From: an uncultured Candidatus Saccharibacteria bacterium
GTDB lineage: Bacteria > Patescibacteriota > Doudnabacteria > UBA920
Direction: 5' to 3'
DNA length: 64,000 nt
Assembly: GCA_964597895.1 (NCBI GenBank)
Contig: CAZQZS010000001.1
Coordinates: 81,008-145,007, forward strand
Each line of letters starts with the position of its first letter. The first letter of the stretch is position 1. Shown here one piece after another: positions 1,643 through 17,904 of the stretch. Position numbers and translations under genes: made by a program. A model generated the notes under the pieces. That model saw only the letters and a list, made by a program, of their open reading frames with translations, searched no databases and was not told the origin of the DNA.

Positions 1643-3676
1643 ATGCAACAAAAAGTATTGCTTTGGTTTACAGCATTGGCTGTAGCTATTGGCAGCATGG
1701 CTGGTTTGGCTGTACAGACTGCCCGGGCCGAAGTGGCGGCTCAGCCGATTGTTATTTCGGCAGTTCAAGTCTCCGGAGGGGACGGCTTTGTTAATCAGGA
1801 TTTTATAGAGCTATATAATCCGAATCCGTACCCAATGGATTTAAACGGACATCGATTGGTAAAGCGTTCCGCAAATGGCACTGCGGATAGCTCAATCAAA
1901 TCATTTTCGGCAGAAACAATCATTCCGGCTTATAGTTTTTATCTGTGGGCCAATTCTTCCTGGTTGGATATTGCTGTAGTGCCTGATGCTACAACTTCGG
2001 CTACACTAGCCAACGATAATGGCGTGGCTTTGCGCCAGGGTGCATTAGACACTGGGACGATCATTGATAGCCTAGCTTGGGGAGAAACTAGCAATGGTTT
2101 TGTAACTACAGGTTTATCTAACCCCTCGGGAGGAGAATCTGTAGTCAGGCAAGATTTGTTTGAGAATCTTGGCTATTTTCTGGCTAGCAGCAGCCCGCGA
2201 AACAGCAGTGTTCAAGTGTTGCCAGATCAAATCCCTGAGCTAACCGATAACGCTCAGTGTGGTGTAGAAAATCATTCTGTCCAAGTAGCGCCTGGTCAAT
2301 CCTTGCTGCTGAACCTTAACTTGGTAAATTTAGGAAACACGGTTTGGAGCAGCTCAAATTATTTTGTCCAGCAAAATTATACTTCTAGTGAGCTACGAAT
2401 AAGTTTGGGCAAAGATGTAAATCCTCTAGAACAGATTACGCTTGCTTTAACTCTATCCGCACCCGTACAGATCGGAGAGTACTTTTACCAATGGCAGATG
2501 AATTCTGGAGTACAGCTGTTTGGGGAGGTGTGCTCAATGACCGTGACGGTGCAGGTGGAGGTGCCGGATGATCAACCAGGTAGCCAGGCCAAGACAGTTC
2601 AGATCACCGAATTTCTGCCTAATCCAATCGGGGAGGATAATGGTTTTGAGGTGGTGGAGTTACATAATTTTGGCAATACTGTAATCAACTTAGAAAATTG
2701 GGTTTTAGATGACGTTTTAACAGCACCTTTAAGTTCAAATGCATTTGTCCTGGGAAATCAGACATTGGGAGCAGGGGAATATGTTGCCATAACGATTCCT
2801 TCGGGCAAATTTGGCTTGAATAATAGCGGGGGAGATGGTTTAGGCTTATTTGACCAAGAAGGCGAATTAATCAGCAAAGTTACTTATACGAGCACGGCCC
2901 CAGAAGGTAAGTCGTATAGCTTGATTGGCGGTTCTTGGTACTGGTCAGCGCCAAGCCTGGGATCGGTTAATCTAGAATTGCCGTCAGATAATCCAGACAT
3001 TCCCGATGATTCTGATGACGAAGCACCACCTGTTGATCCTGAGCCTGATGATGAGTCAGTGAATTATGAACTGATAATTTCGGAAATCTACCCAGCGCCC
3101 AAACCAGCGCAAAAGGAGTTTGTGGAGATTTATAACCCCAGCGTTTCATTGGTAAATCTGTCGGCCTACAAACTAGTTATCGGATCTAGGGCACAAGTTT
3201 TGCCTGATGTAGATTTGGGGAGCGGGGAATATTTTATACTAACCGGCCAAGATTTAAAGCTTCCTTTGGCAGATTCAGGGAAATTAATTCAACTGCAATC
3301 TCTTTCGGGCGAGATTATAGATGAAGTTGAGTATCCAAAGGCTCTTAAGGGGAGCAGCTATGCTTGGGCTGAGGATAGTTATGTTTGGACTTTAACGCCA
3401 ACTCCTGGACAAGCTAATCAACTGACTGTGTCTGGTGAGGGTCGCTCAAGCAAGGCTAAGCCTGCCAAAAAAACTGTGCCAGCAAAAGTTGCCAAGCAGC
3501 CCATAGCCGGAGTAAGCGAGACTAATCAGGACAAATTTCCTCAGGAAATTGCTCCAGCTTTAGCTCCTCCAGCCCAACAACCCAAGGCTAACATTATCAA
3601 TGCTATAGCCATTGGTTTTGCAAGCTTAAGCGCTGGTGTTTATGCGCTGTATAAATTCGGAATAGCTGGGCTTTAG
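1643..3676 (+). CDS. secreted/membrane-anchored protein with three lamin-tail-like domains
   Basis: Signal peptide; three repeats of the V.ISE..YNP....EF+ELYN...L.GW pattern (aa about 45, 320, 470); C-terminal TM helix; strong RBS aaaggag. Confidence 0.6.
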   Translation: MQQKVLLWFTALAVAIGSMAGLAVQTARAEVAAQPIVISAVQVSGGDGFVNQDFIELYNPNPYPMDLNGHRLVKRSANGTADSSIKSFSAETIIPAYSFYLWANSSWLDIAVVPDATTSATLANDNGVALRQGALDTGTIIDSLAWGETSNGFVTTGLSNPSGGESVVRQDLFENLGYFLASSSPRNSSVQVLPDQIPELTDNAQCGVENHSVQVAPGQSLLLNLNLVNLGNTVWSSSNYFVQQNYTSSELRISLGKDVNPLEQITLALTLSAPVQIGEYFYQWQMNSGVQLFGEVCSMTVTVQVEVPDDQPGSQAKTVQITEFLPNPIGEDNGFEVVELHNFGNTVINLENWVLDDVLTAPLSSNAFVLGNQTLGAGEYVAITIPSGKFGLNNSGGDGLGLFDQEGELISKVTYTSTAPEGKSYSLIGGSWYWSAPSLGSVNLELPSDNPDIPDDSDDEAPPVDPEPDDESVNYELIISEIYPAPKPAQKEFVEIYNPSVSLVNLSAYKLVIGSRAQVLPDVDLGSGEYFILTGQDLKLPLADSGKLIQLQSLSGEIIDEVEYPKALKGSSYAWAEDSYVWTLTPTPGQANQLTVSGEGRSSKAKPAKKTVPAKVAKQPIAGVSETNQDKFPQEIAPALAPPAQQPKANIINAIAIGFASLSAGVYALYKFGIAGL

Positions 3677-3852
3677 TCAAACAATTTTGCGTGTTAAAAT
3701 GTTCATATCTATGGAATATCTCAAAAAAATCTGGAAGTGGATAGAAATCGGTATAGGGTTTGTAATTAATAGCCTCGGGAATCTCATTCTGCCTGGTTAG
3801 AAAATTTATTTTAGGTATGTTATAATTCAGAAAATCAGTAATTTGATGCTTT

Positions 3853-4164
3853 ATGAGTTTGAACAAATCTGATTTAATTGAGGTTTTGGCAGCCCGTTTG
3901 TCTATCACTTATACAGAAGCCGAACGCATGCTTAATGCCTTTATTAATTTAATCTACGAATCGCTCAAAAACGGCGAGAAAGTTAACATTAGCGGCTTTG
4001 GCCAGTTTAGCGTTTCTCATAGAGCGCCACGCATTGGTGTTAACCCGCGTAATCCTACCCAAAAGATAGAGATTCCAGAATTGAACACCCCAAAGTTTAA
4101 AGCCGGAGAGGCTTTTAAAGAAGCTGTGAAGTTAAGAAAAAATTCTAGCCATATACAAGAATAA
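3853..4164 (+). CDS. hup: HU/IHF family DNA-binding protein
   Basis: 103 aa with HU signature (GFGQFSVSHRAPRIGVNPRNP). Confidence 0.85.
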   Translation: MSLNKSDLIEVLAARLSITYTEAERMLNAFINLIYESLKNGEKVNISGFGQFSVSHRAPRIGVNPRNPTQKIEIPELNTPKFKAGEAFKEAVKLRKNSSHIQE

Positions 4165-4165
4165 A

Positions 4166-4192
4166 TAAAACCGCCGTAAGGCGGTTTTATTC
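4166..4192 (+). terminator. rho-independent terminator after hup
   Basis: aaaaccgcc-gtaa-ggcggtttt hairpin plus T-run. Confidence 0.6.
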
Positions 4193-4230
4193 TAATTAAG
4201 AAAAAAGCACCGAACGAGATGTCTTTTCTT

Positions 4231-4631
4231 TGGAGCGGGTAAGGGGAATTACGCGTCGGCTTTCTGCTGAAAGCCTCCTTGCCCGGGGTTGCGGAAACCT
4301 GCCACTGGCAGCTTTCCGATCGTTCGCTTTCGGTTTTCTCTGCAGAGAAAACCTCAGCTCACTTCAACCCGTTCGATTCCTCTATAATCATTCCAAAGTA
4401 AAAGCCCCAGCTATCGCTGAGGCATTTACTTTGGAGCGGCTAAGGGGAATGTCGCGTCGGCTTTCTACTGAAAGCCTCCTTGCCCGGGGTTGCGGAAACC
4501 TGCCACTGGCAGCTTTCCGATCGTTCGCTTTCGGTTTTCTCTGCAGAGAAAACCTCAGCTCACTTCAACCCGTTCGATTCCGCTAACTCACCAAAATAAA
4601 AAAGTACCAGGCAAGCTGATACTTTTTTATT
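4231..4631. repeat. 200/201-bp tandem repeat (2 copies) ending in the tRNA-Gly gene; each copy begins with a 19-nt duplicate of the tRNA-Gly 3' end
   Basis: tggagcgggtaaggggaat at 4231 and 4432 (1 mismatch) equals the 3' end of tRNA-Gly at 4632; the rest of each unit is near-identical between copies. Confidence 0.75.
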
Positions 4632-4706
4632 TGGAGCGGGTAAGGGGAATCGAACCCCTATCATCAGTTTGGAAAACTGAGATAATAACCATTATACGAT
4701 ACCCGC
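4632..4706 (-). tRNA. tRNA-Gly (anticodon UCC)
   Basis: Manual cloverleaf: acceptor GCGGGTA/TACCCGC, anticodon stem TCAGT/ACTGA, loop TTTCCAA, T-arm AGGGG-TTCGATT-CCCCT, discriminator U, CCA encoded; close to E. coli glyT. Confidence 0.85.
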
Positions 4707-4742
4707 AATCTAATGGTGATCAAATTTCTGCTTGGGGCAAGT

Positions 4743-4814
4743 TGGAGCAGGCTCACGGAGTGTAGCGACGGGAGCCGTCGCGACAACGCAGGTTAAGCAG
4801 AAATTTGTAAGGCA
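4743..4814 (+). ncRNA. conserved structured motif copy B
   Basis: Paralogue of 601-672 with compensatory change in the closing helix. Confidence 0.3.
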
Positions 4815-4883
4815 CAATAATGCGGAAGGTGGAGTGGGTCCGCCAGGGGCGGGCACACGCAACCTGCAGCATTAATTGGGCCG

Positions 4884-4960
4884 TGGTCGGGAACCCGGGA
4901 CTCGAACCCGGAACCTCTCGGTCCCAAACCGAGTGCTCTAGCCAATTGAGCCAGTTCCCG
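4884..4960 (-). tRNA. tRNA-Pro (anticodon UGG)
   Basis: Manual cloverleaf: acceptor CGGGAAC/GTTCCCG, anticodon stem CTCGG/CCGAG, loop TTTGGGA, T-arm CCGGG-TTCGAGT-CCCGG, CCA encoded. Confidence 0.85.
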
Positions 4961-5203
4961 AAGCATGATTGCCTCAAATCTACATATGTTACCGAGCCAC
5001 AGCCATCTAAGGCTAGAGGCACTCGGTGAGTGCACTATCTCTTGGTCTGCCTTGGGCAGAACCCAATTGAGCCAGTTCCCGAAGCATGATTGCCTCAAAT
5101 CTACATATGTTACCGAGCCACAGCCATCTAAGGCTAGAGGCACTCGGTGAGTGCACTATCTCTTGGTCTGCCTTGGGCAGAACCCAATTGAGCCAGTTCC
5201 CGT
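4944..5203. repeat. 121-bp tandem repeat, about 2.1 copies, first copy overlapping the 5' 17 nt of tRNA-Pro
   Basis: aattgagccagttcccgaagc... recurs at 4944, 5065, 5186 with identical units. Confidence 0.8.
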
Positions 5204-5263
5204 CGCACATATACATCAAATACAAGTTATTCTACTAATTTTGTCGTAAAAAATCAAGCTGGA

Positions 5264-5292
5264 TTGACATTTATAGGATTAATCTGTAAAAT
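5264..5292 (+). promoter_or_regulatory. sigma70-like promoter
   Basis: TTGACA - 17 nt - TAAAAT, followed by RBS aaaggagg and ATG 5353. Confidence 0.5.
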
Positions 5293-5352
5293 GATATAAC
5301 TGATTTTAGGTTCGGCAATTGGCCCGTATTTTGTTCAAAGGAGGAAACTAAC

Positions 5353-5886
5353 ATGTTAGGTGGAAGGCAGATCTTTGGTTTGGCGGTTTTTGTTTTTGTC
5401 GTCGTATCGTGGGTCGCATGGTACGATTGGTCGAAGTTTTATAGTTCGGCTTGTGAGGAGTGGGGATCGTCTGCTATTGACTGCAACAGCGAATCCTATC
5501 GTCCTGCCGATAAGGTCAAGCACTTGCACGAGTATGTGCGCAATCCTGGTAATGCCAAAAGTTTTCAGCAGTACCAACAGCTGGATACAAATAGAGTTAA
5601 GTACTCCGCCGCTGTCCTCAAGACAGACAATGGGGTATATTACTTGAACGCTTTTCCAGATTCCCTTCAGGTTTTGTTTGTAAAGAATGGAATGCAAGAT
5701 CCGGAATTTGGCTGGCAGGATTTTGATGCCGACGGCACCATTGATTTTGCCACCAGGAGGTTGGTCGATAAGTCACCTCCAGTAGTCTACGATTCCGAGA
5801 TGGGCTTAAACCGTGACCTTAGACCCATATTCCAAGCTGCTTACTCTATGCACGTAGAGACCATCACTACCAGGCTTGGCCTGTAG
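5353..5886 (+). CDS. hypothetical membrane-anchored protein
   Basis: 177-aa ORF with strong RBS, N-terminal TM helix; no recognisable family. Confidence 0.45.
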   Translation: MLGGRQIFGLAVFVFVVVSWVAWYDWSKFYSSACEEWGSSAIDCNSESYRPADKVKHLHEYVRNPGNAKSFQQYQQLDTNRVKYSAAVLKTDNGVYYLNAFPDSLQVLFVKNGMQDPEFGWQDFDADGTIDFATRRLVDKSPPVVYDSEMGLNRDLRPIFQAAYSMHVETITTRLGL

Positions 5887-5891
5887 GCGTT

Positions 5892-5926
5892 AGCGGTCGT
5901 TGTTAACGGCCGCTTTTTTATTTTGA
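5892..5926 (+). terminator. rho-independent terminator
   Basis: agcggtcg-ttgttaa-cggccgct hairpin and T-rich tail. Confidence 0.45.
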
Positions 5927-6866
5927 CTTTATATTGGTAGATCTCTGCGCAGCTTGCACAAACAAAACTTTAGCTATTTTTAGGCTAGATTATGACTTTT
6001 AAGCCATTTTGCAAGACAATTTGCTCGGCCAGACCTTCAAGCTAACCGTGAATATACCCCCATAATTAGTTGACCTTTTTGGCCAGGTATTTTATAATAT
6101 ATGCACAAATGAAAAAGATTGGTTGCCAATTAAATAGCAATCTCCAAATGCGCAAATAAGCGTATTTTTGCCAAATCTCCGTATTTTGGCAAAAATCTCC
6201 ATATTTTGCGTGTTTTTTGTTACCAAAGTTGGCCCAAAGTAGTAAACATATATACATTAAAAAATCAGCCATTTTTTGTAACAGCTTACTAGTATAGACG
6301 TCTAATTTACCGTAATCTGACAATCCTAGAAACAAACACCTAAAAAATCGAGTTTAGAGTAATGCCTGACAGACAGGTATCACCCTGAACTTGAATTGTG
6401 TCATTCTTGGGCTCTACCCTGAGCTTGTCGAAGGGGAGAGAGCCGGGATCTATAATTTATGGATCCCCGGCCGCCGTCGGCGCCAGGGATGACAACTAAA
6501 GAATTCTCGGGCGTGAACCGGGATTCCACAAGTTCAGTTAGTTCTTTTTAGTTATTGACTCATTTTGTACCGTTTCTCAAAAGGTGACTTACGTATTAAT
6601 CACCGAGGCCGGTTGGTAGTCTGAGTTAGCGTTAGATTCCTTGGTCCTAGATCAGGGAGGCCTATGCAAACTCGCGGCGCTCTTGCAGCGTCCTGCCCAC
6701 CCGTTTTGGCAGTAAGTATCCTTGGTCGAACTTTTGGGAGCGAGCGCGTGCGAAATGAATTATCAATAATCGGTCTATGTTTGAAATAGGCGAGCGTGAA
6801 CTCTAGAGCTCGCTCGAAACTAACAGATATAGCTCGTTAAACCTAATTAATATTTTTTGAATCTTT

Positions 6867-6894
6867 TATTGATTATCTCAATTGAATAATCAAG
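6867..6894. promoter_or_regulatory. palindromic operator-like site upstream of acidic surface protein paralogue A
   Basis: TTATTGATTATCTCAATTGAATAATCAAG; inverted repeat ttgattat/ataatcaa; related copy at 11011-11040. Confidence 0.4.
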
Positions 6895-6969
6895 ACTGGT
6901 ATTCTCTCTCTTGTCCTAATGAACAACGAAAGAGATTCTGCCAGCCCGATTCAAAAAATGGAGTATTAA

Positions 6970-9204
6970 ATGTCTTTATTTAAGAAAATTGCTGTTGGTG
7001 TATCTACAGTAGCTCTTCCTGCCTCTATGTTTTTTGGCAGCGCTGCTGTAACCAAGGCTGCTACTGCTGGTGGAGTTTACTCTACCCCAGACGGTACCGT
7101 ATGGTTCGTCACTAAGGATATGCAGAAGCGTCCTTTCACTAGCGCAGGTGCTTTCTTGAGCTATGGTTTCTTAAACTTCTCTCAAGTTACCCCAGCTGAC
7201 GCTAGCGTAACCGCTTTGCCTACTGGTAGCTTCATCGCTCCAGCTGACGGCAAAATCTTCTGTGCTACCGAAACCAAAGGTACTGACGTAGCCGGAGAAT
7301 GTGCTCTAATCACTGGAAGCAAGAAAGCTTCCTTTACCTCTGCTGCTGTATTCGCAGCACAAGGCCACAGTTTTGCCCGCGCAATGTATGGTGACTCTTC
7401 CTTCTTGGAAAAGACCTCTAACATCAGCGACGGCAGTGCTGCTCACCTTCCAGGTGTGTTAGTAAACAACGGCGGCACCGTTCAAATGGTTGTCTCCGGT
7501 GGTCTATGGGGTATCCCATCTCAAGATGTGTTCAACTCTTGGGGCTACAACTTTGCTGACGTAGTACCTGCAAACTCTGCAGATACCGCTAAGAGCCAAG
7601 TTGGTGTAATCCCAGCTCGTATGGCTGGCGAACTCGTTCCTACTGGTACTACCGGTGGAACTCCTGGTCCATCTGATTGTAACGTTGACGGCGTAGCTGG
7701 TGACGTAACTATCACTTTGGGTAATGAATACTCTGATGAAGAAGTTGGTGAAGGCCAAGAAGAAGTACCAGTAATGGACTTCGATGTTGAAGCTGATGAT
7801 GATTCAGATGTAGCCGTTACTTCTGTAAAGGTTGAATTAGAACAGACTAACGCTGCTGACTCTGACGACATCACTGATTACATCGACGAAGTTGTAATTA
7901 TGTTTGGTGACGAAGTAGTAGGTTCTGCTGATGCAGACGACTTCTCCGAAAACAATGACCGTTACAGCAAGTCCATTTCTTTGGACGATTGTGTAATCGT
8001 TGATGCTGGTGAAGAAGAAACCTTCACTGTTGCTATCACTGCATTAGAATCTTTGGATTCTGCTGACATTGATACCGATGTTTGGGATGTAGAATTAGAC
8101 TCTCTCCGTTTCGAAGACGGTGATGGTGTAACTACTACCGAAACTCCAGCTGCTGACGCAATTGACCGTGCATTTGATTTCGGTACTTTTGCTGCAGTAA
8201 ACGATGTTGAATTGACTATTGCCCTCGCTGATTCAGACGAAGGCGATGCTATCAATGACGCACACGTTATCGACATCGATGAATCTTCTGATACTGACGA
8301 TGTAGAAATTTTATCTTTCACCATGGAAGCTACTGGCGACTCTGACATTAATGTCACCGAAATTCCAGTAACTATTACTACCACTGGTGAAACTGATGAA
8401 GCTGTATTGTTAATCAACGCCACTCTTTGGATGGATGGTGAAGAACTAGCTTCTGAAGATGTACCAACTGGCGGTGCTGTAACCTTCGAAGACCTTGACA
8501 TTGATGTAGAGGCTGACGAAGAAGTTGAGCTCGTAGTTGCAGTTAGCATTCAAGACACTGACGGTGCAGCTGACAATGGCGACACCGTACAAGCTTCCGT
8601 TACCAGTGGTAACGTTGATGCTATTGAAGCTGAAGACGAAACTGGCGAAGATGTAGCTACTACTGACCTCGAAGGTTCTGCAGTAGGCGACACCCATGCC
8701 GTTTACGATGCTGGTATCATGGTTGATTTCGTTTCTGCAGAAGCAGAACGTACTTTCACCGCTGACGCAGCGACTGAAGATGATCAAGGTACTTATGAAA
8801 TCGTATTTGAAGTAACTGCCTTTGACGGCGACGCTTACATCGACACTTCTTGTGAAGATGACAACGGCGCTGACGCAGCTGGTCAAGGTACAGTATTTGA
8901 TATTAACTCATCTGCTGGTACCCCAACCGGTGGCAGCACATGTCTAGTAGACGCTGCAGGAACCGTAACTGGTGATGTAGTAGGTACTTCTTGGCGTGTA
9001 ATTGAAGGTCAGACTCGTGAATTTACTTTCACAGTAACATTGACCGCTGACTCTACCCCAACCGATGGCAATCACCAAGTTATCTTGGAATCCATCAACT
9101 GGGATAATGAAGCTGGCGGTGTAGATGCTACTCCTGACTTCTTCTACAACTTCAACATGGATGACTTCAAGACTCCATACCTGTTCTTGAACGGTATCGC
9201 GTAA
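6970..9204 (+). CDS. secreted acidic (D/E/T-rich) surface protein, paralogue A
   Basis: 744 aa, signal peptide, conserved N-terminal about 200 aa identical to paralogue B, highly acidic variable C-terminal region. Confidence 0.7.
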   Translation: MSLFKKIAVGVSTVALPASMFFGSAAVTKAATAGGVYSTPDGTVWFVTKDMQKRPFTSAGAFLSYGFLNFSQVTPADASVTALPTGSFIAPADGKIFCATETKGTDVAGECALITGSKKASFTSAAVFAAQGHSFARAMYGDSSFLEKTSNISDGSAAHLPGVLVNNGGTVQMVVSGGLWGIPSQDVFNSWGYNFADVVPANSADTAKSQVGVIPARMAGELVPTGTTGGTPGPSDCNVDGVAGDVTITLGNEYSDEEVGEGQEEVPVMDFDVEADDDSDVAVTSVKVELEQTNAADSDDITDYIDEVVIMFGDEVVGSADADDFSENNDRYSKSISLDDCVIVDAGEEETFTVAITALESLDSADIDTDVWDVELDSLRFEDGDGVTTTETPAADAIDRAFDFGTFAAVNDVELTIALADSDEGDAINDAHVIDIDESSDTDDVEILSFTMEATGDSDINVTEIPVTITTTGETDEAVLLINATLWMDGEELASEDVPTGGAVTFEDLDIDVEADEEVELVVAVSIQDTDGAADNGDTVQASVTSGNVDAIEAEDETGEDVATTDLEGSAVGDTHAVYDAGIMVDFVSAEAERTFTADAATEDDQGTYEIVFEVTAFDGDAYIDTSCEDDNGADAAGQGTVFDINSSAGTPTGGSTCLVDAAGTVTGDVVGTSWRVIEGQTREFTFTVTLTADSTPTDGNHQVILESINWDNEAGGVDATPDFFYNFNMDDFKTPYLFLNGIA

Positions 9205-9256
9205 TTGATTCATCTATCGCCAATAGCGAACCTAATCTGCTAATGGCATAGTTGTA

Positions 9257-9284
9257 CAAAACCCCGCCCGAAGGCGGGGTTTTG
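9257..9284. terminator. bidirectional rho-independent terminator between convergent genes
   Basis: aaaaccccgcc-cgaa-ggcggggtttt. Confidence 0.55.
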
Positions 9285-9315
9285 TTTTGCCTGCTAAGCA
9301 CCATGCGAGGCAGGT

Positions 9316-10149
9316 TTATTCATACTCTTCGCTGTATTGATCAGCGAGGATAGATATTTTAGCGTCAAGAATTTTCTGTAAGGCCTCATCATAGTCTGCT
9401 CCATCCATTTCGTCTATAGCTTGTTCAAGTAATAGCTCTTCTTCCTGGGTTAACTCTGTATCTTTACTGAGTTCTACAACATCATTTATTTCGGATTCAA
9501 CTAACTGTTTTTGCTCAGTTTCGTTCGCACTTTCGATAAACATATCCAGCTCATTTTCTATCTCTATATCTATGGTTTGTTCGGCTAAGGCGATATCTTG
9601 GCTTTCTGTTCCTGCTTCGGAAAATAATTCATCCTGAGCATCTAATATGGCTGCCACTTCCACTAGCTGATCAATTTGTAAAGAAGGGGATTGTTCCGAT
9701 TCATTTAATACTACCTCCAGAGCATAATCTTCTATATTTTCGGAAATATAGCTCAGAGTTTCTGAATCCAGCTGCTCTGGTGAAGAGTTTTGCAATTCAT
9801 TTAGCCTTTCGTGAAGTCTTTCAGTAGCAAATTCGTTTTGCTCCTGCCACGGGGAGGTGAGCAGTTCTTCTGCAGGCTCAATTATCATAATTTCTACTCC
9901 ATAAAGCCAACCGCCGGGTCGGCTATTTTGAGCTGCATATGTGAGCGGGGTGGCAATTAATATTAGCAAGAGTGCTACGCTCACAGGCATAGCCACTTTG
10001 CTCTGCAGAAGCTGATGAATTAAGTGACTAATCCCGCTTGGCTGGGCTTTATCGCTCCCAATCACAGCAGTCAGCATTTGTTCCTTTTCCTTGGCCGACA
10101 GCCTAGTTTGATTGGCTTGTTCTGTAAATTTTTGTAATGGGTCAGTCAT
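9316..10149 (-). CDS. putative anti-sigma factor (single TM, acidic extracytoplasmic domain)
   Basis: Overlaps ECF sigma gene by 8 nt (translational coupling); short N-terminal cytoplasmic region, one TM helix, acidic C-terminal domain. Confidence 0.5.
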   Translation of the reverse strand: MTDPLQKFTEQANQTRLSAKEKEQMLTAVIGSDKAQPSGISHLIHQLLQSKVAMPVSVALLLILIATPLTYAAQNSRPGGWLYGVEIMIIEPAEELLTSPWQEQNEFATERLHERLNELQNSSPEQLDSETLSYISENIEDYALEVVLNESEQSPSLQIDQLVEVAAILDAQDELFSEAGTESQDIALAEQTIDIEIENELDMFIESANETEQKQLVESEINDVVELSKDTELTQEEELLLEQAIDEMDGADYDEALQKILDAKISILADQYSEEYE

Positions 10150-10627
10150 AAATTTTTTTAATCTTCTCTAGTCCTCGTTTGATTTGCACCGAGACTGTAT
10201 TTTCTTTGCGGTTAAGTATTTGGGCAATTTCTTGAACTTGCATACCTTCTACATACCTCATAAGTAGCACATCTCTGTATTGTGGATCGATAGATCTAAT
10301 TTTTTCCAGCACTTCATTTTGAAAGACTATTTCCGAGACATTGGCTTTCTGGTCGGGGATGTCGAAGCCAGTATCTAGTAGTTGGTTAAGGGAAATCTCT
10401 TTATTACCTTTGCGGATTTCGTTGATAAAAATGTTCGCCGCGCTACGATAGAGGAAAGCTTTAGGGTGCTCCACGGCATTTCCCTTTTGCAGATACTGCC
10501 AGAAGTTGGAGAAGACATCTTGGGTTAGCTCTTTGGCCCTTTCCCGGTTCGCTAATTTAAAATACAGATACCGAAATATAGCATCTGCGAATTCGTGATA
10601 GATCTTTTCGAATTCTGCTTGGTCCAA
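10142..10627 (-). CDS. ECF-family RNA polymerase sigma factor (sigma-70 regions 2 and 4)
   Basis: 161 aa with sigma-70 region 2/4-like sequence (LLMRYVEGMQVQEIAQILNRKENTVSVQIKRGLEKIKK); TTG start with RBS aaggag. Confidence 0.8.
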   Translation of the reverse strand: MDQAEFEKIYHEFADAIFRYLYFKLANRERAKELTQDVFSNFWQYLQKGNAVEHPKAFLYRSAANIFINEIRKGNKEISLNQLLDTGFDIPDQKANVSEIVFQNEVLEKIRSIDPQYRDVLLMRYVEGMQVQEIAQILNRKENTVSVQIKRGLEKIKKIYD

Positions 10628-11010
10628 CCCGTCTCCTTTATGAAAATAAAAATCCGCTTATTTCCGGATGATTTTTATTGTCAGATTTTCCGGTTTTCTG
10701 TGTCTTTAATTACAGAGGCGGACTTCCGCTTACATAAATCAAGACGTGTTTTGGCTGGGTGTGTTACTTCGCGCTCATTATAACTCACTAATGTATTTCT
10801 GTTAAGTTTGCCGTCCGCCTCTATCTAAATCTTGTTGACTTGTCAGGGGCATACGGATCACCGGACATAGCTGGTGATTGGTCGTGCGTATGTGTTCATT
10901 ACTTTGTCTGCACAAGCAATAAGCAAGAGAGTATAAAGTTTTTGCGATAACTCTAGATAGTCGCTAATTCATTAATATTCTGTTGAGTAATTAATTATGT
11001 TTTCTATAAT

Positions 11011-11040
11011 TATTGATTGTCGCAATTGAGCAATCAATTA
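11011..11040. promoter_or_regulatory. palindromic operator-like site upstream of paralogue B
   Basis: TTATTGATTGTCGCAATTGAGCAATCAATT; inverted repeat ttgattg/caatcaa; TATAAT immediately upstream (11004-11009). Confidence 0.4.
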
Positions 11041-11095
11041 TGAAGACCCTCTAACTTTTGGAAGAGGGTCGCAGTTATAGAAAACGGAGTATCTC

Positions 11096-13342
11096 ATGAA
11101 AACTTTTTTAAGTAAAATAGTAACTGGTTTTTCTGTTGTTGCTTTATCTGCAACAATGTTGGTTATGCCGGCTGCTGTAACCAAGGCTGCTACTGCTGGT
11201 GGAGTTTACTCTACCCCAGACGGTACCGTATGGTTCGTCACTAAGGATATGCAGAAGCGTCCTTTCACTAGCGCAGGTGCTTTCTTGAGCTATGGTTTCT
11301 TAAACTTCTCTCAAGTTACCCCAGCTGACGCTAGCGTAACCGCTTTGCCTACTGGTAGCTTCATCGCTCCAGCTGACGGCAAAATCTTCTGTGCTACCGA
11401 AACCAAAGGTACTGACGTAGCCGGAGAATGTGCTCTAATCACTGGAAGCAAGAAAGCTTCCTTTACCTCTGCTGCTGTATTCGCAGCACAAGGCCACAGT
11501 TTTGCCCGCGCAATGTATGGTGACTCTTCCTTCTTGGAAAAGACCTCTAACATCAGCGACGGCAGTGCTGCTCACCTTCCAGGTGTGTTAGTAAACAACG
11601 GCGGCACCGTTCAAATGGTTGTCTCCGGTGGTCTATGGGGTATCCCATCTATTGATGTATTCAATTCTTGGGGCTACAACTTTGCTGACGTAGTACCTGC
11701 AAACTCTGCAGACTTAGTTAAAGAACAAATTGGTGTGATTCCTGCCCGCCAAGCTGGTGAATTAGTGCCGACTGGCCTTACTGGCGGTCCAACTCCTGGT
11801 CCAAAGGATTGTAATTTGGATGGCTCTGCCGGCTCAATTGACGTGGAATCTTCATCCATTTACAGCAATGAAGAAGTGGGCGAAGGGCAAGAAGAAGTTC
11901 CTGTAATGGCCTTCCGTGTAGAAGCTGATAACGATTCCGACATTGAAATCCGCTCTATCCGTGTTGCTTTGGAACACACTGGTTCTGGATCTCAGGACTT
12001 AGACGATTACGCAACCGAAATCACTGTTTGGCAAGGCGATGATATGGTAGGTTCTGCAGATGTTGATGAATTCACCGAGAATAATGACATCTTTACCAAG
12101 ACCATTAACTTGGATTGTGCAGTGATTGATGCAGACGAAACTGAGGAATTCTCGGTAGCTGTTTCTGCATTGCGCAACATTGACTCCAATGATTTGGATG
12201 AAGTTTGGAACATTGACGTGACCAGCATCCGCTTTATGGATGGTGACGGCGTGACCACTACTGAATCCCAGTCTGGCCTGGATCAAGACTTTACTTTTGT
12301 GGATTTTGTCACTGCTGCTGACGTTGAACTTCGCGTTGCTCTTAATGACGACGAGGAAGACATCAATGACGCGCATAACATCTTGGTAGATGAAGACACC
12401 ACCACCAAGAATGAGCCAGTATTGGCATTCACCTTGGAAGCTCGTGGTGATTCTGACATCACTGTGGATGAAATCCCAGTGTTGTTGACCACTGATGACG
12501 ATGATATGGATTCTGTAGCAACTACTGCTCATCTTTATCAGGGTACGACAAAGTTGAGTACAGAAACAATTACTAGCAGCAATACTGACCATGACAATGA
12601 TGCTCAAACTGCTCTGGTTATCTTCGATGATCTCGACTTTGACATCGACGCAGGCGATAAGGAAGAGTTCCAGGTTCGCTTGGATTTTGCCCGCCGCACT
12701 GTAAGCACTTATGCTGAAGGTACTACCGTCCGTGCAGAAATCACTAGCGCCTTGGCTGATTCTGACTTGGAAGCCGAAGACGAAGAAGGTAATGATTTGA
12801 GCTCTAGTGAAATCAGTGGTTCTGCTCTAGGTGAAGACCACTCCTTGTTTACCCAAGGTATTCAGGTAGAAGTAACTTCTAAGCAAACCAATGTTAACAC
12901 TAACGACGGAGCAGACAACGATTCTGTGGAGTTCGTTTGGGAAGTTACCATTACCAACATTGGTGATGAAGATGTATTCATCAATGCCGACAATGCCGAT
13001 GTAGTATCTAGTGATACTGCAGCAGATGTTGACACTTTGTACGCATCTGAGGACGGTGCAGCAACTCTTGGTAGTTTCAGTGGTACAATCACTGATGAAA
13101 ATGCAACCGAGTCTACCGCTAGTGCCGGCAACTTTAATGGTGAAGTGTTCTACAAGATCGCTGCTGGCGGTTCGGAAGACTTTACCATCACCGTGACTGC
13201 GACTAACAGCGCAGGTGCAGGTCAGGTTCGTGGTTGGTTGACTGCCATCGAATGGACAACCAACATTAATGGTGGGGTAGCTGAGTCTTATACCGCTAAT
13301 CTGGTTCAAGATTCACGCACACCATTCAAGCTGGTAAACTAA
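11096..13342 (+). CDS. secreted acidic surface protein, paralogue B
   Basis: 748 aa; DNA 11171-11650 is 100% identical to 7042-7521, then the sequences diverge. Confidence 0.7.
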   Translation: MKTFLSKIVTGFSVVALSATMLVMPAAVTKAATAGGVYSTPDGTVWFVTKDMQKRPFTSAGAFLSYGFLNFSQVTPADASVTALPTGSFIAPADGKIFCATETKGTDVAGECALITGSKKASFTSAAVFAAQGHSFARAMYGDSSFLEKTSNISDGSAAHLPGVLVNNGGTVQMVVSGGLWGIPSIDVFNSWGYNFADVVPANSADLVKEQIGVIPARQAGELVPTGLTGGPTPGPKDCNLDGSAGSIDVESSSIYSNEEVGEGQEEVPVMAFRVEADNDSDIEIRSIRVALEHTGSGSQDLDDYATEITVWQGDDMVGSADVDEFTENNDIFTKTINLDCAVIDADETEEFSVAVSALRNIDSNDLDEVWNIDVTSIRFMDGDGVTTTESQSGLDQDFTFVDFVTAADVELRVALNDDEEDINDAHNILVDEDTTTKNEPVLAFTLEARGDSDITVDEIPVLLTTDDDDMDSVATTAHLYQGTTKLSTETITSSNTDHDNDAQTALVIFDDLDFDIDAGDKEEFQVRLDFARRTVSTYAEGTTVRAEITSALADSDLEAEDEEGNDLSSSEISGSALGEDHSLFTQGIQVEVTSKQTNVNTNDGADNDSVEFVWEVTITNIGDEDVFINADNADVVSSDTAADVDTLYASEDGAATLGSFSGTITDENATESTASAGNFNGEVFYKIAAGGSEDFTITVTATNSAGAGQVRGWLTAIEWTTNINGGVAESYTANLVQDSRTPFKLVN

Positions 13343-13378
13343 GCTCTATCTGTTGAGCTAGCTCCCTAGCTTTTGTAT

Positions 13379-13432
13379 AAACCCCGCATTAGGTTTGGCA
13401 AGTTTGCGGCCTAAGCGGGGTTTTACTTTTTC
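13379..13432 (+). terminator. long-stem terminator hairpin
   Basis: ccccgc...gcgggg stem followed by ttttactttttcg. Confidence 0.4.
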
Positions 13433-13505
13433 GTTTATAATTAAGGCAGAAAACATTTTCTAAAAAGTGTTACATTTTTTGCTCAGTGCAGTTATAATAG
13501 TTAGT

Positions 13506-14162
13506 ATGGAACCACAATCAAACATTCAAAATAATTCAAACAACCAAAATAATCTCACCAAGGATTTGCCAAACAAGAGTTTCTTGTCTCGGTATTTTTG
13601 GCCGTTAATTTTAATCTTGATTATTGCCTTGGCTACAGGCTATTGGCTTAGCCAGAAGGATCGGGCAACTGACCCAGATCTAAGTCTTTCACCAAACGAA
13701 GTTGAACAGCTGCCAGCTGATCAGCAGAAGGGTGTATTAGAAAAGCAGTTACAAGATTTATTGGGGCAGGAAAAAGCTCTAACATCAGAGTCAGACCGCG
13801 GCGATAGATTCACAGTTTACATTCAACTTGGCGAAGTTTATACAGCCTTAGGGCGTCACGATGAAGCTTTGGCTGTATTAGACAAGCTTAAAGAAGAGCG
13901 CAGTGGCAATACTCGGCTTTGGATGACCTATGCCCAGGTATATAAAAACAAGAATAGCTTGCCAGAAGCACGTGCTAATGTGCGTATGGCTTTAGATATT
14001 GATCCAGAGTTAGCCCAGAACTGGCTGTTTATGCTTGGCATCCTTGAGGATTTAGATAAACCAAGCCAGGAGAGTATTTATAAGGAAGCCCTGCAGCGAA
14101 GTGGTAACCTACCAGAAATACAAGCAGCATATCAAGCTTGGCAGCAAAGTAATCAACAATAA
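13506..14162 (+). CDS. membrane-anchored TPR-like repeat protein
   Basis: ORF 13467-14162; TATAAT at 13493-13498 lies 7 nt before ATG 13506, so the shorter, possibly leaderless start is preferred; one TM helix then helical repeats. Confidence 0.4.
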   Translation: MEPQSNIQNNSNNQNNLTKDLPNKSFLSRYFWPLILILIIALATGYWLSQKDRATDPDLSLSPNEVEQLPADQQKGVLEKQLQDLLGQEKALTSESDRGDRFTVYIQLGEVYTALGRHDEALAVLDKLKEERSGNTRLWMTYAQVYKNKNSLPEARANVRMALDIDPELAQNWLFMLGILEDLDKPSQESIYKEALQRSGNLPEIQAAYQAWQQSNQQ

Positions 14163-14877
14163 ACAAAACCGCCTTCTAGCAGTTTTTCGCTATTTGGTTT
14201 CTTGAGAAATTTTTCAGTAAATCTTGTTCCCAAAAATACATTGACTCAAGCCTGCTCTGAAGGCTAGAATAAATTACTAACCAACTTTTGAATGCTAACG
14301 AATCAAGATATTGAAAAATTAAAAAGCGTTTTTGCTACCAAAGAGGATTTTGGTATTTTCGCAACCAAAGACGACTTTAAATATCTAAAAATCAAAATTA
14401 ATGGCATAGATTCCAAACTTTTGAAGCTTAGAGAGGAAATAAAGAGCATCGGGTAAAGAGACATAGAAGATATCACCGCTTTATCAAAAAGTATTTTGAA
14501 TCATGAGGGTCGTATTAAGATATTGGAGCGTCGGGTCAGACGCGGAATAAAGAGATCAGTATAAACTGCCATTTAGCTGTTTTTTTACATGATATTTATA
14601 ATAAAAATAATTTTTTTGTAGTTTGTATCGTGCAGGTATTGTAGTAGCTGGTATAATCAATTTCATAGGAATTAATTTAAATCATATGACTATAAAAAAG
14701 TGTGATGTGTGCCAAAATGATATTCCAGATAAGTCCTGGTTTTCAGTATCAATCCGTTCCATAGCTATCTTTTATGATTTATGTGATGAATGTAGTAAAC
14801 CTATCAAAGACTATTTGTTTGAAAATAATTTATCTTTAGAAAGATAGTATCGACATTTGGAAAAAGATAACTAAATA

Positions 14878-14886
14878 TGTTATAAT
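14878..14886 (+). promoter_or_regulatory. extended -10 element (TGTTATAAT) upstream of pilB
   Basis: Read directly; about 60 nt upstream of pilB start. Confidence 0.35.
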
Positions 14887-14944
14887 TTAGTCATAAATTC
14901 GCGCACAGGGCGGGAAAATTTTAGAGTTAGAAACCCAAACAAAA

Positions 14945-16687
14945 ATGGTTACAGCTGAGCTCAATCAGCTCCTCAAAAAAAAGCGCATTGTTTCCAGTTC
15001 TGCTTTAACTAAGCTGGAAAAAGAATTCTCTGGACTCAAGCAGCCTATGGCTTGGGAAGATTTTTTGTTGGAGCAAAAAGCTCTCACCGAAGACCAGCTT
15101 CTTAAAGTCAAAGCCGAGGAGTTTGGGGTAGAAATTGTTGATTTGCATGATAAAGATCTTGCTGAATCTGTGCTCAATATGGTTCCCGAACCAATCGCGC
15201 GACGACACCACGTGATTAGTTTTGCCAAAACCAAGAATGAGCTGTCTTTGGCCATGACGGACCCAAGCGACTTGCAAACTAAAGAATTTATAAAAAAGAA
15301 AACCGGCTTGGACATTAAAGTTTTTTTGATCGGCAAGAGTTCGCTTGATCACGGTCTGTCAAAGTATCACACCAACTTAGAAGGCGAAATCAAGCACATG
15401 GTTGATGAGGGCAAGCCTGACGCAGCCGGCGGTACAGATGAAGTTGGTGATGAGCTAAAAAAAATGGCTCAAGAGATTCCGATTATCCGCGTGGTGGACA
15501 CTTTGTTGGAATATGCCGTAATCGAAAAAGCTTCCGATATTCATATTGAGCCACAAGAAACTGCAGTGGTCGTGCGATATCGTATTGACGGCGTACTTCA
15601 TGATGTCATGACTTTGCCTAAGCCAATTCAGGCGGCGCTGGTTGCGCGCATAAAGGTGTTGGCAAACCTTAAAATAGACGAACACCGTTTGCCGCAAGAC
15701 GGCCGCTATAAAATAGAAAAAGACGGTTATAAGTTTTCTTTGCGTATTTCTACGATTCCGATTTTTGATGGTGAAAAAGTTGTAATTCGGTTACTGGATG
15801 AATCCACCAAAGCTATGAACTTGGAGCAGTTGGGTTTCTTAAAGGAGCAGTTGGATATTGTCACCCGGAATATCAAAAAGCCTCATGGCATGATGCTAAT
15901 TACCGGTCCAACTGGAAGCGGTAAATCTACGTCTTTGTATGCTATCTTGACTATCCTTAACACTAAAACTGTTAACATTTCTACCATTGAAGACCCTGTG
16001 GAATATCGTATTGTCGGTGCGAATCAGATGCAGGTCAACCCAAAAATTGGCCTGACCTTTGCTGTAGGATTGCGCGCTTTGCTTCGCCAAGATCCGAACA
16101 TTATTATGATAGGTGAAATTCGCGACCAAGAAACTGCCGAAGAGGCCATGCATGCGGCCATGACCGGGCATATCGTGCTGTCTACGTTACACACTAATTC
16201 GGCCGCCGCTGCTCCACCGCGCCTAATTGATATTGGGATTGAACCTTACCTGATCGCTTCTACTACCAACGCCATCATGGCCCAGCGTTTGGTCCGTGTT
16301 ATTTGTCCTGATTGCAAAGCCGAAGAAAAGCCTGATCCTGCTACGTTTGAATCTTTGGGTAAGCAGTTTAACTTAGACGCCTTAATGTCAGTGTTGGCCC
16401 GCTTAGGCTTGTCTGGTTCGGCTAAGTCTCTTGCAGACATGCCGTTTTATGTTGGCAAAGGCTGTGAAAAATGCGGCAACACCGGCTATAAGGGTCGTAT
16501 CGGTGTTCATGAAATTTTAGAAAATACTCCAGAAATTGAAGATCTAATCGTAAAGCGTGCTACAGCGCAAGATATCGAGGTTGCCGCAGTTAAAAACGGC
16601 ATGATTACCATGTGGCAGGACGCCTTTATTAAAGCCGTGCAGGGCCAGACCACCATAGAAGAAATTCTGCGCGTAACCAAAGAATAA
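14945..16687 (+). CDS. pilB: type IV pilus assembly ATPase PilB (GspE family)
   Basis: 580 aa, Walker A GPTGSGKST, GspE N-terminal domain, tetracysteine motif. Confidence 0.85.
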   Translation: MVTAELNQLLKKKRIVSSSALTKLEKEFSGLKQPMAWEDFLLEQKALTEDQLLKVKAEEFGVEIVDLHDKDLAESVLNMVPEPIARRHHVISFAKTKNELSLAMTDPSDLQTKEFIKKKTGLDIKVFLIGKSSLDHGLSKYHTNLEGEIKHMVDEGKPDAAGGTDEVGDELKKMAQEIPIIRVVDTLLEYAVIEKASDIHIEPQETAVVVRYRIDGVLHDVMTLPKPIQAALVARIKVLANLKIDEHRLPQDGRYKIEKDGYKFSLRISTIPIFDGEKVVIRLLDESTKAMNLEQLGFLKEQLDIVTRNIKKPHGMMLITGPTGSGKSTSLYAILTILNTKTVNISTIEDPVEYRIVGANQMQVNPKIGLTFAVGLRALLRQDPNIIMIGEIRDQETAEEAMHAAMTGHIVLSTLHTNSAAAAPPRLIDIGIEPYLIASTTNAIMAQRLVRVICPDCKAEEKPDPATFESLGKQFNLDALMSVLARLGLSGSAKSLADMPFYVGKGCEKCGNTGYKGRIGVHEILENTPEIEDLIVKRATAQDIEVAAVKNGMITMWQDAFIKAVQGQTTIEEILRVTKE

Positions 16688-16689
16688 GC

Positions 16690-17904
16690 ATGCCAACTTT
16701 TTTATATACAGCAGCCGCTAAAGATGGTAAACAGCAGACTGGCACTATAGAAGCTGCTAATTTTTTGTCAGCAGGACATTTGTTAAAAGAGCAGGGTTTG
16801 ATCCCTATGGATTTGCATGAGCAAAGTACAGGGTTTGACTGGCAAGAATATTTGCAGGGCTTTGCCACCATTCCGCTTAAGGCCAAAATTGCTTTTATTC
16901 AAAATTTGGATTTACTGCTAAAAAGCGGGGTAGCAGCGCCGCGGGCCTTAAGGATTATTGCCAAGCAAACTGCTAATCGCAAGTTTCGTGGCATTATTGA
17001 TAATTTGGCTACAGCTGTAGAAACTGGTAAATCCCTGCACGAAGCTATGGCTGAGTATCCAAATATTTTTTCGCATATCTTTATTAGCATGATAGAGGTA
17101 GGGGAGCTGTCTGGTAATTTGGAAAAGAGCTTAGAATATTTGCGAATTCAATTGCAGCGCGAGGCAGATTTAAAGTCCAAAACAAAAGGAGCAATGATCT
17201 ATCCGGCGGTAATTGTGTCGGCCATGATTGTGATTGGTATTGTGTTGGCTATATTTGTGCTGCCTAAATTAACCGCCACGTTTAAGGAATTTAACACTCA
17301 GCTACCAATCTTAACTAGAATTGTAATTTTTATAAGTGATTGGATGGCAGCCAATTCAATTGTTGTAGTAATTGGTTTTGTGGCTTTGGTAGTGGGTGCG
17401 GTGTTTTTTTTGCGAACCCCTGCTGGCAAGCGCTCCCTGGCTTGGTATTTACTGCACATGCCAATGATCAGCCCGATCACAAAAAAGATCAATATTGCCA
17501 GGTTCTCCAGAATATTGGGTTCGCTCATGAAGTCGGGCATATCGGTAGTGCAGGGCTTAGGTGTTACCGCTGACGCGCTTAGTAATGTGTATTACCAGGA
17601 GGTGCTAGAGGATACGGCCGAAAGCGTGAAGCTGGGCAAGCCGCTTACGGAATCCTTAGCCAAGCACGATAAGCTATTTCCGTTTATTGTTACCCAAATG
17701 CTCGCTATAGGCGAGGAGACTGGTAACTTAGAAGATATCTTAGAGCAGTTGGCGCAGTCTCATGAGGCGGAAATAGATGAAACCATGAAGAATTTGTCAT
17801 CCATCATTGAACCGTTGCTGTTGTTGGTAATAGGTGTTGTGGTTGGTTTCTTAGCGTTGGCATTGATTATGCCAATTTATAATATTACGCAATCAATCTC
17901 TTAA
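16690..17904 (+). CDS. pilC: type IV pilus assembly inner-membrane platform protein PilC (GspF family)
   Basis: 404 aa with duplicated GspF domains and TM helices. Confidence 0.85.
   Translation: MPTFLYTAAAKDGKQQTGTIEAANFLSAGHLLKEQGLIPMDLHEQSTGFDWQEYLQGFATIPLKAKIAFIQNLDLLLKSGVAAPRALRIIAKQTANRKFRGIIDNLATAVETGKSLHEAMAEYPNIFSHIFISMIEVGELSGNLEKSLEYLRIQLQREADLKSKTKGAMIYPAVIVSAMIVIGIVLAIFVLPKLTATFKEFNTQLPILTRIVIFISDWMAANSIVVVIGFVALVVGAVFFLRTPAGKRSLAWYLLHMPMISPITKKINIARFSRILGSLMKSGISVVQGLGVTADALSNVYYQEVLEDTAESVKLGKPLTESLAKHDKLFPFIVTQMLAIGEETGNLEDILEQLAQSHEAEIDETMKNLSSIIEPLLLLVIGVVVGFLALALIMPIYNITQSIS

Follow-up and report, generated by a model that had tools for sequence, protein, structure and literature searches.

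The window analysed here is a stretch of 64,000 nucleotides (64 kb) from contig CAZQZS010000001.1 of an uncultured, ultra-small member of the Doudnabacteria (Patescibacteria). In it, two paralogous genes, here referred to as A and B, encode large secreted surface proteins and flank a gene pair for a sigma factor of the extracytoplasmic function (ECF) type and a single-pass membrane protein. The gene order is A (+), membrane protein (−), sigma factor (−), B (+). The genes, which were taken from the list of open reading frames (ORFs), their parts and a DNA block common to A and B were as follows.

6970–9204, + strand: gene A, A-type surface protein of 744 aa (ORF list)
6970–7059, + strand: signal peptide of gene A, predicted cleavage site between AVTKA and AT
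7042–7521, + strand: gene-conversion tract, copy 1, exact, with near-identity on to 7583
7051–7653, + strand: N-terminal three-repeat domain (N domain) of gene A
7675–9201, + strand: acidic, predicted beta-sandwich region (C region) of gene A
9257–9289, both strands: bidirectional intrinsic terminator between the convergent gene A and membrane-protein gene
9316–10149, − strand: candidate anti-sigma membrane protein of 277 aa (ORF and topology)
10142–10627, − strand: ECF-type sigma factor of 161 aa (Pfam and TIGR02937), TTG start after AAGGAG
11096–13342, + strand: gene B, B-type surface protein of 748 aa (ORF list)
11096–11188, + strand: signal peptide of gene B
11171–11650, + strand: gene-conversion tract, copy 2, exact match to copy 1
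about 11180–11788, + strand: N domain of gene B
11810–13339, + strand: acidic, predicted beta-sandwich region (C region) of gene B

Long antisense ORFs within A and B were set aside as by-products of the GAT/GAA-rich coding strand. Loci that were fetched from related genomes and metagenomes are numbered L001 to L075, and homologous proteins carry P-numbers.

The longest exact run shared by A and B is 480 nt long, at an offset of 4129 nt (7042–7521 = 11171–11650), just as an earlier sequence-only reading had noticed. Past this block there are 5 mismatches in 7522–7536, followed by 47 identical bases (7537–7583), and beyond 7583 the identity drops gradually, codon-wise, to about 50–60%. From about residue 40 to residue 160 all codons of A and B are identical, and downstream of this part roughly every second conserved residue is encoded by a different codon. 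Over the same 480 nt, orthologues showed 82–84% DNA identity (72–87 mismatches), despite 89–94% protein identity of their N domains. Therefore, purifying selection on the protein cannot explain 0 mismatches in 480, the chance of which at 84% identity is, by our arithmetic, about 1e-37 (0.84^480).

The N domains cluster by genome, with 99% identity between the window genes A and B (winA/winB), 100% between the two paralogues of L029 (L029_1/2), 95% between those of L028 (L028_1/2) and 89–94% between genomes. Shared tracts were also found in the relatives: the paralogues in L029, L030 and L031, from three independent assemblies (ERZ761587, JGI 3300014773 and ERZ761594), share 951 nt at 99.2%, and those of L028 (GCA_022842405) share 958 nt at 91%, both tracts taking in about 260 nt 5′ of the start codon. 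As the N domains group by genome and the C regions by type, the duplication must be old, its 5′ part being homogenised. The affinity of the C regions to orthologues of other genomes led us to reject a recent partial duplication in place of conversion. Recent gene conversion, which had been suspected from the perfect identity, accounts for the 480-nt block, and the same concerted evolution is seen independently in the relatives.

The C-termini were earlier thought to diverge completely. However, A and B align from end to end in a single BLASTP alignment (53% overall identity, E = 0), and their C regions are 38% identical. The C region of A is nearest to that of L001 (70%), then L002 (58%) and L028_2 (43%), and the C region of B is nearest to that of L006 (48%), then L028_1/L029_1 (38%). 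Over the last 160 residues the identity is 23% between A and B, 82% between A and L001, and 47–49% between B and L006 or L028_1/L029_1; B-like tails (...TPFxxVN) were present in at least 16 of 121 family members. We take the A-type and B-type C regions to be two old types that recur across distant genomes.

Exchange of a whole C region between strains was observed in two relatives. L028 and L029 are 96–99% identical over about 20 kb save for about 1.35 kb of the second gene, which comprises the C region of this paralogue and gave no DNA alignment, the two versions being 48% identical in amino acids.

L028:10966–12314 versus L029:14246–15593: strain-level replacement of the C region, second paralogue

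The breakpoints of this swap lie just past the conserved 5′ part and just past the stop codon, and the C region of the other paralogue is 100% identical between the two loci. As the breakpoints are beside the conserved 5′ part, the conserved module would therefore also be a handle for the replacement of surface regions. C-terminal variability, as the sequence-only reading had anticipated for a variable surface family, was thus found in the form of this swap, but among two old conserved types rather than as freely hypervariable tails. The hyper-acidic character was borne out, with aspartate and glutamate (D+E) making up 26% (A) and 23% (B) of the C regions and lysine and arginine 2–4%. The acidity runs evenly through the C region from end to end. 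Ranked by acidity, the 44 window proteins are headed by A, B and the membrane protein.

Several known mechanisms of surface variation were also considered. Targeting by a diversity-generating retroelement was rejected, since no repeat pair in the window involves the 3′ ends of A or B and no ORF resembling a reverse transcriptase was found between window positions 5.5 and 15 kb. No tandem or long homopolymer repeats, which argues against slipped-strand phase variation, and no recombinase gene were found at the locus. Inversion switching and cassette-type variation were rejected as both copies are direct and each has its own leader, Shine-Dalgarno sequence (SD) and start codon.

The family to which A and B belong has more than 265 members, all of them in Patescibacteria (Doudnabacteria, Taylorbacteria and further metagenome-assembled genomes (MAGs)). 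Scans of Pfam, NCBIfam and PADLOC returned no family for A, B or the membrane protein. For the conserved N domain, which the sequence-only reading had singled out, searches found no Pfam family in the window sequence nor in 46 members at E up to 1, nothing in NCBIfam, only marginal beta-propeller matches in a profile search of PDB, and no significant match to SLH, CWB2, PG_binding_1, LysM or SH3b profiles. Structure prediction modelled the domain as three beta-beta-beta-alpha repeats with a predicted local distance difference test score (pLDDT) of 96.5. A profile of this domain (A6, window 7051–7653) matched 3,111 cluster representatives at E ≤ 1e-3 and 640 at E ≤ 1e-30. The domain stands at the N- or C-terminus of proteins of 177–3254 aa, sometimes with 6–10 stretches per protein, and is also fused to unrelated proteins of about 330, 1150–1600 and up to 3254 aa.

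The AlphaFold2 model of the whole protein A (121-sequence alignment, pLDDT 85.8) comprises the signal peptide, the three-repeat N domain, a short linker and four to five beta-sandwich domains. Fold searches with the whole model gave generic immunoglobulin (Ig)-like matches only (integrin legs, PrgB, cohesins, Calx-beta, adhesin stalks). Homologues that cover the C-terminal 67–73% of A carry PG_binding_1 instead of the N domain, as in P0103, where it lies at residues 60–96; because of this replacement, the N domain is probably a cell-wall anchor. Its modularity resembles the behaviour of SLH, CWB2 and LysM and of described anchors of surface-layer (S-layer) proteins (bioRxiv 10.1101/2025.04.02.646754). 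A and B would accordingly be bipartite proteins with a signal peptide, a swappable N domain as putative anchor and a beta-sandwich C part, in agreement with the secreted surface proteins proposed at first sight. L004, L008, L021 and L026 each have two different N-domain genes in the same orientation and near one another, such as one for a protein of at least 1150 aa beside one for a 745-aa family member, and clustering of genes that share the 5′ module seems to be common.

Upstream of both genes lies the palindrome that had been described as an operator-like site. It occurs exactly twice in the window (6869–6893 and 11013–11037; 0 expected by chance), and the DNA around it is strikingly conserved among loci whose proteins are only 40–70% identical. 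The features of this region are listed below, where P1, P2 and P3 are the helices of the core motif, Ha and Hb those upstream of it.

6550–6562, + strand: distal conserved box AGTTATTGACTCA of gene A, possibly a promoter element
6712–6969, + strand: predicted structured leader of gene A, upstream helices followed by the core junction
6720–6732, + strand: leader block CCTTGGTCGAACT of gene A
6771–6778 and 6829–6836, + strand: helix Ha of the gene A leader
6791–6816, + strand: hairpin Hb around GAACTCTAGAGC, gene A leader
6842–6972, + strand: core leader motif of gene A, three-way junction (minimum free energy (MFE) fold and covariance model)
6853–6863 with 6948–6958: P1 of gene A; 6869–6893: P2, the palindrome hairpin; about 6896–6944: P3
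6960–6963, + strand: SD of gene A (GGAG), single-stranded in the fold, ATG at 6970
10832–10845, + strand: TTGACT box 5′ of gene B, marking the distal end of conservation as 6550–6562 does in A
10944–10964, + strand: degenerate Hb hairpin of the gene B leader
10986–11098, + strand: core leader motif of gene B, same junction as in A
10999–11009 with 11075–11085: P1 of gene B; 11013–11037: P2; 11045–11070: P3; 11086–11089: SD

In our reading the "palindromic operator" is the invariant hairpin of a previously undescribed leader RNA, a three-way junction whose other helices covary. RNAalifold, run on 21 long versions (alignment A5), predicted two upstream helices and the palindrome hairpin. In A5, 93.4% of cells were paired, compared with 80.9% in shuffles and 28–43% when slid, with 70 double-change cells against 26.7 expected and a covariation score that none of 500 shuffles reached. 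P1 is a long-range helix, in which a U-rich stretch before the palindrome pairs with an A-rich stretch ending 1–2 nt before GGAG. It could not be counted on A5, where two clades are offset by two columns, and was tested by duplex energies and by a fitted alignment. Across 25 distinct sequences the duplex energy was −10.3 kcal/mol for a sequence's own pair and −3.9 kcal/mol for cross pairs, and the own partner came first in most.

The gene A core has an MFE of −32.6 kcal/mol (z = −5.0) and the gene B core one of −34.8 kcal/mol (z = −6.1), both folding into the same three-way junction with the SD free in B as in A; the distal leader of B has diverged and its core is intact. When a covariance model derived from 11 sequences of a different clade was run on the 740 kb of fetched DNA, it found 65 copies, of which 56 are distinct; in the window it found exactly two (B 73.8 and A 64.1 bits). 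Among the 56 distinct rows (the fitted alignment, A9), all 10 P1 pairs and all 9 P3 pairs had compensatory changes, and 93.7% of cells were paired compared with 78.6% in shuffles. P2 is invariant save for one pair (G-U in 41, A-U in 14 and G-C in 1), and G-U pairs fit the sense strand only. Rfam 15 gave no match to the leader: only 7 tRNAs reached the gathering thresholds in the window, and within 6500–7000 at E up to 10 there were only noise matches of at most 16 bits.

A metagenome scan with P2 gave 42 matches, 35 of which lie directly 5′ of an N-domain ORF; 5 of the 42 are cut off within 200 nt 3′ of the hairpin, and the part that remains shows the family signal peptide. At L063:465 (−) the leader precedes a family-like signal peptide with no N domain detectable in 1.3 kb, and at L050:299 (−) the 25-mer lies in GC-rich, unrelated DNA, the sole unrelated match of the 42. 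The PG_binding_1 variants in L032 and L033 do not carry the P1/P2 leader; therefore, the leader goes with the N domain and not with the C-terminal family. Thus the site itself, found twice as first reported, stood up to analysis, but it behaves as an RNA hairpin tied to the N domain. About 60–90 nt 5′ of the PG_binding_1 variants we identified TTTGTCGAA followed by ATAATCAATAAG (L032) or ACTTATTAATGG (L033), blocks which recall the long-leader blocks GGTCGAACT and ATCAATAATCGG and may be a remote relative of the leader.

The leader was found in a short form (P1 and P2 only, 11–15 nt from the SD) and in a long form with two extra upstream helices, and in the relatives it lies inside the conversion tract. 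The distal box AGTTATTGACTCA is kept 5′ of both paralogues in L028 and L029 and in L027, and more distant loci carry a related TTATTGACC..TATAAAT box. Some matches to the sigma-70 consensus overlap P1, and none of them was trusted as a promoter. The conserved leader of gene A is preceded by a non-coding stretch of about 630 nt (window 5915–6545), with a near-consensus TTGACC-17-TATAAT (6070–6098) and a 20-nt tandem/inverted repeat (6154–6208), and blocks at about 6069–6227 and 6328–6470 are 88–89% identical to L027.

The overlapping ECF sigma factor and acidic single-pass membrane protein reported between A and B are indeed present. The sigma factor (161 aa) matched Sigma70_r2 (E = 1e-7) and Sigma70_r4_2 (E = 6.5e-15) in Pfam and scored 79.4 bits against TIGR02937 (cut-off 42.9); having sigma-2 and sigma-4 regions only and passing the superfamily model, it is an ECF (group 4) sigma-70 factor. 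Its gene overlaps the downstream 277-aa ORF by 8 nt (ATGACTGA). The product of the latter has a cytoplasmic N-terminus of about 50 aa, one transmembrane segment and a 202-aa acidic helical external part (27.7% D+E). No anti-sigma domain or family reached the cut-off in Pfam or NCBIfam, and its L029 homologue showed a weak DUF5667 match below the cut-off (E = 4e-4), so that it is named a candidate anti-sigma factor from its position (the 8-nt overlap) and single-pass topology only. The terminator at 9257–9289 reads CAAAACCCCGCC-GAAG-GGCGGGGTTTTGTTTTG, a perfect stem with A/T runs on both sides; similar terminator-like elements of 24–29 nt lie 3′ of genes in L006, L008 and L029. The region upstream of the sigma operon held the following features.

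10675–10805, − strand: sigma operon upstream region with a sigma-70-like site and a conserved block
10805–10777, − strand: candidate sigma-70-like site TTAACA-17-TATAAT, 5′ of the sigma operon
about 10713–10675, − strand: block TTAAAGACAC-N-GGAAAATCTGACAATA, common to the sigma upstream regions of L028 and L029

The block TTAAAGACAC-N-GGAAAATCTGACAATA, which could be the sigma factor's own regulatory site, is absent 5′ of A and B, and no GAAC-N-CGT-like pair, as in ECF-type promoters, was found upstream of the sigma gene.

The order in L028–L031 is membrane protein (−), sigma (−), B-type (+), A-type (+), the A-type gene following the B-type gene on its right, whereas in the window it stands left of the pair. 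Synteny between window 1098–20092 and L029 includes NusB, an LTD protein, a TPR protein, PilB, PilC and PilM, and in the relatives toxin-antitoxin genes (PemK, ParE/RHH, Gp49/HTH) have been inserted behind the pair. In about 20 other loci, the closest A-type orthologue included, no similar sigma factor was found within 10 kb; L020 has a weak sigma match 3 kb downstream. The linkage to ECF sigma factors thus held in L028–L031 but not in the wider family, and the "self-contained" cassette of the sequence-only reading was not upheld, as the same genes and upstream element do without it in these about 20 genomes. ECF linkage is limited to the closest relatives, and the pair is a lineage-specific neighbour rather than a defining part. 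Elsewhere in the window (31393–35292) we identified a 1299-aa probable surface protein, unrelated to the A/B family, with pectate-lyase-like, Big_7, CHB_HEX_C and Fn3-associated domains.

The effective number of codons was lowest for A (34.7) and second lowest for B (41.3), the other 41 of 43 window genes being at 47.3 or above. Strong codon bias, together with the long structured leader and the strong terminator after gene A, would point indirectly to very high expression. A and B are probably abundant, wall-anchored surface proteins that form a coat, and their most likely role would be a major wall-associated coat of S-layer type, with A as the main copy and B as the alternative. S-layer proteins are bipartite with swappable anchors (bioRxiv 10.1101/2025.04.02.646754), and S-layer genes are marked by long 5′ untranslated regions (UTRs) that have a stabilising effect, by codon bias and by multiple paralogues whose wall-binding region is conserved (PMC3666127). 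S-layers were seen by cryo-transmission electron microscopy on cells of the Candidate Phyla Radiation (CPR) (bioRxiv 10.1101/2020.05.14.094862), while the components of the CPR envelope remain unclear (PMC5220378; bioRxiv 10.1101/2020.05.14.094862).

Likenesses to several known systems can be drawn. The sap/eag genes of Bacillus anthracis are also two clustered chromosomal paralogues, whose products, Sap and EA1, have an N-terminal three-repeat wall anchor and a diverged surface (crystallisation) domain of 500–600 aa and serve as alternative coats of one cell (PMC4232325). However, the putative anchor here is not SLH, has no Pfam family and is modelled as beta-beta-beta-alpha repeats; the surface regions are modelled as hyper-acidic beta-sandwich strings; and the genes are separated by the sigma/membrane-protein pair. 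Lactobacillus strains likewise have several slp paralogues each (slpA/slpB and relatives), in which the wall-binding region is conserved and the assembly region varies, along with biased codons and a long structured 5′ UTR that stabilises the mRNA (PMC3666127). There, however, the wall-binding region is C-terminal, and L. acidophilus uses inversion onto one active promoter, whereas here the copies are direct, each with leader and SD, and the leader has an invariant hairpin conserved across a phylum-level group.

The sap genes of Campylobacter fetus share with A and B a conserved 5′ coding block and differing 3′ parts. In C. fetus the shared block is the substrate of recombination. That species works with one promoter, promoterless cassettes and inversion, of which the present locus shows none, nor does a recombinase gene adjoin it. 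PMC4232325 lists the segmental conservation of sapA sequences (Dworkin et al. 1995). SlpA/CWB2 of Clostridioides difficile is alike in that the anchor is common to many surface proteins and swappable among homologues, and that recombination between strains replaces the surface domains (bioRxiv 10.1101/2025.04.02.646754). The folds of both anchor and surface region, as modelled here, are different from those of C. difficile. There, to our knowledge, no shared leader RNA accompanying the anchor module has been described. A single repeat bears a weak likeness to EccB repeat domains, phage PlyCB and cell-wall-binding domains of enterococcal endolysins, to which it is unrelated in sequence; the arrangement in three repeats is found in the present family only. 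The undescribed anchor, the hyper-acidic beta-sandwiches, the conversion between direct repeats with no inversion switch and the phylum-wide leader RNA set this family apart from the known S-layer gene pairs and families.

The explanation that we favour, with a probability of roughly 0.6, is that A and B are old wall-anchored, coat-type paralogues with a converted 5′ module, a leader RNA and exchangeable surface regions, to which the ECF pair is a clade-specific addition. The 5′ module would comprise the structured leader RNA, a Sec signal peptide and the roughly 200-aa three-repeat N domain as presumed wall anchor, and the surface region, of roughly 510 aa, four to five Ig-like beta-sandwich domains. 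Homologous recombination between the copies would repeatedly overwrite the anchor-coding DNA as the surface regions go on diverging, and the conserved 5′ block together with the downstream flank would let whole surface regions swap between strains. The closing helix of the three-way junction, predicted to end 1–2 nt before the free SD, may let the leader stabilise the mRNA and/or control translation, probably through a conserved trans-acting factor, and the invariance of P2 suggests that such a factor recognises it. The ECF pair would be a real regulatory module, here only in this clade, which may tune B, its divergently transcribed neighbour.

A number of points weigh against this explanation. 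That A and B are abundant is read from the codon bias in a single 64-kb stretch. Among the fold-search matches no S-layer protein of known structure was prominent, and a string of predicted beta-sandwiches fits adhesins as well as S-layer proteins. A has 6 cysteines and B has 4, and cysteines are unusual in classical S-layer proteins. The commonest metagenomic partner of the leader and N domain has a different architecture, of 1150–1600 aa, which could be the true lattice protein. As for the leader, A9 was fitted to the model, which inflates its pair counts, and the independent P1-energy and A5 tests agree with it; some of the conserved upstream sequence might function at the DNA level.

If A and B were adhesins by which an epibiont attaches to its host, and not a coat, the N domain would be the anchor and the beta-sandwiches a stalk with a host-binding tip. 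The fold matches do include Ig-like stalks (PrgB, SdrG, Cna-type, pilins), the locus adjoins a type IV pilus cluster, and the strain-level replacement of a C region would suit variation in host range. We nevertheless consider this rather unlikely, as the strongest codon bias in the window and the long structured leader suggest bulk structural amounts, no lectin or tip domain was recognisable, the acidity is uniform along the whole C region, and both C types are conserved across distant genomes. Clearly unlikely, in our judgement, is that the palindrome acts as a DNA operator for a dimeric transcription factor, the complementarity around it being incidental. Its 25 nt are nearly invariant and dyad-symmetric, a constancy more typical of a site recognised by protein than of a plain helix, but the single variable position keeps the RNA pairing (the G-U, A-U and G-C forms given above) and breaks the DNA symmetry, the flanking P1 and P3 covary at every pair, and the element lies 11–110 nt from the SD, inside the likely transcript. 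DNA and RNA roles of the palindrome could coexist.

The four genes might also form an envelope-stress-responsive variation cassette, in which the ECF sigma factor, released from the anti-sigma factor, drives A and B through the palindrome. This would account for the real and overlapping sigma and membrane-protein genes, which stay beside the paralogues in L028–L031, for the divergent orientation of B and sigma across 468 nt, and for the acidity of the membrane protein's external domain, which equals that of the surface proteins; by analogy, B. anthracis changes from Sap to EA1 with growth phase (PMC4232325). It is improbable, however, given the about 20 loci with family genes and the same leader and no sigma within 10 kb. 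In addition, the palindrome tracks the N domain in metagenomes whatever the neighbours and sits in a covarying RNA helix beside the SD rather than at a promoter position, the block upstream of sigma has no counterpart 5′ of A or B, and the membrane-protein gene and the bidirectional terminator stand between gene A and sigma. Finally, the identical block could be an assembly artefact, through a collapsed or duplicated repeat or homogenisation of the consensus, as the window comes from a metagenome-assembled 286-kb contig and short reads can barely resolve repeats of about 480 nt. But both copies have unique flanks on both sides, the assembled path being the only one through all unique sequence, independent assemblies of relatives have the same architecture with graded identity (99.2% and 91%), and past 7583 the identity falls off gradually, codon by codon. 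Five GTDB MAG contigs (L014, L016, L017 and L018, ending at residues about 205–225, and L027, ending at residue 48) break off inside the N-domain DNA or where it ends, as does the partial protein P0121; this suggests that this repeat routinely breaks short-read assemblies of these genomes. From these breaks and the relatives' own tracts, an artefact in the window is therefore highly improbable.

Beyond the coat-type paralogues that we favour, the family, or its sister of 1150–1600 aa, might be the missing coat of Doudnabacteria-like cells on a new and very widespread wall anchor, with P2 binding a conserved trans-acting factor that couples the synthesis of all wall-anchored proteins to the state of the envelope and the ECF pair as an added input. 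We put this forward tentatively and think it somewhat unlikely as a whole; if true, the cell surface would have a post-transcriptional regulon of its own. The CPR/Patescibacteria are a large part of bacterial diversity, and the locus gives testable candidates for an abundant bipartite surface-protein family, an anchor-domain family and a cis-acting RNA motif. The anchor family, with its 3,111 representatives, would let the wall-associated proteome of these organisms be listed, and the new RNA motif, with its strong covariation, marks N-domain genes. The repeat explains the frequent breaks of MAG contigs in this group, and the locus is a clean natural case of concerted evolution confined to the anchor module together with the exchange of surface domains between strains.

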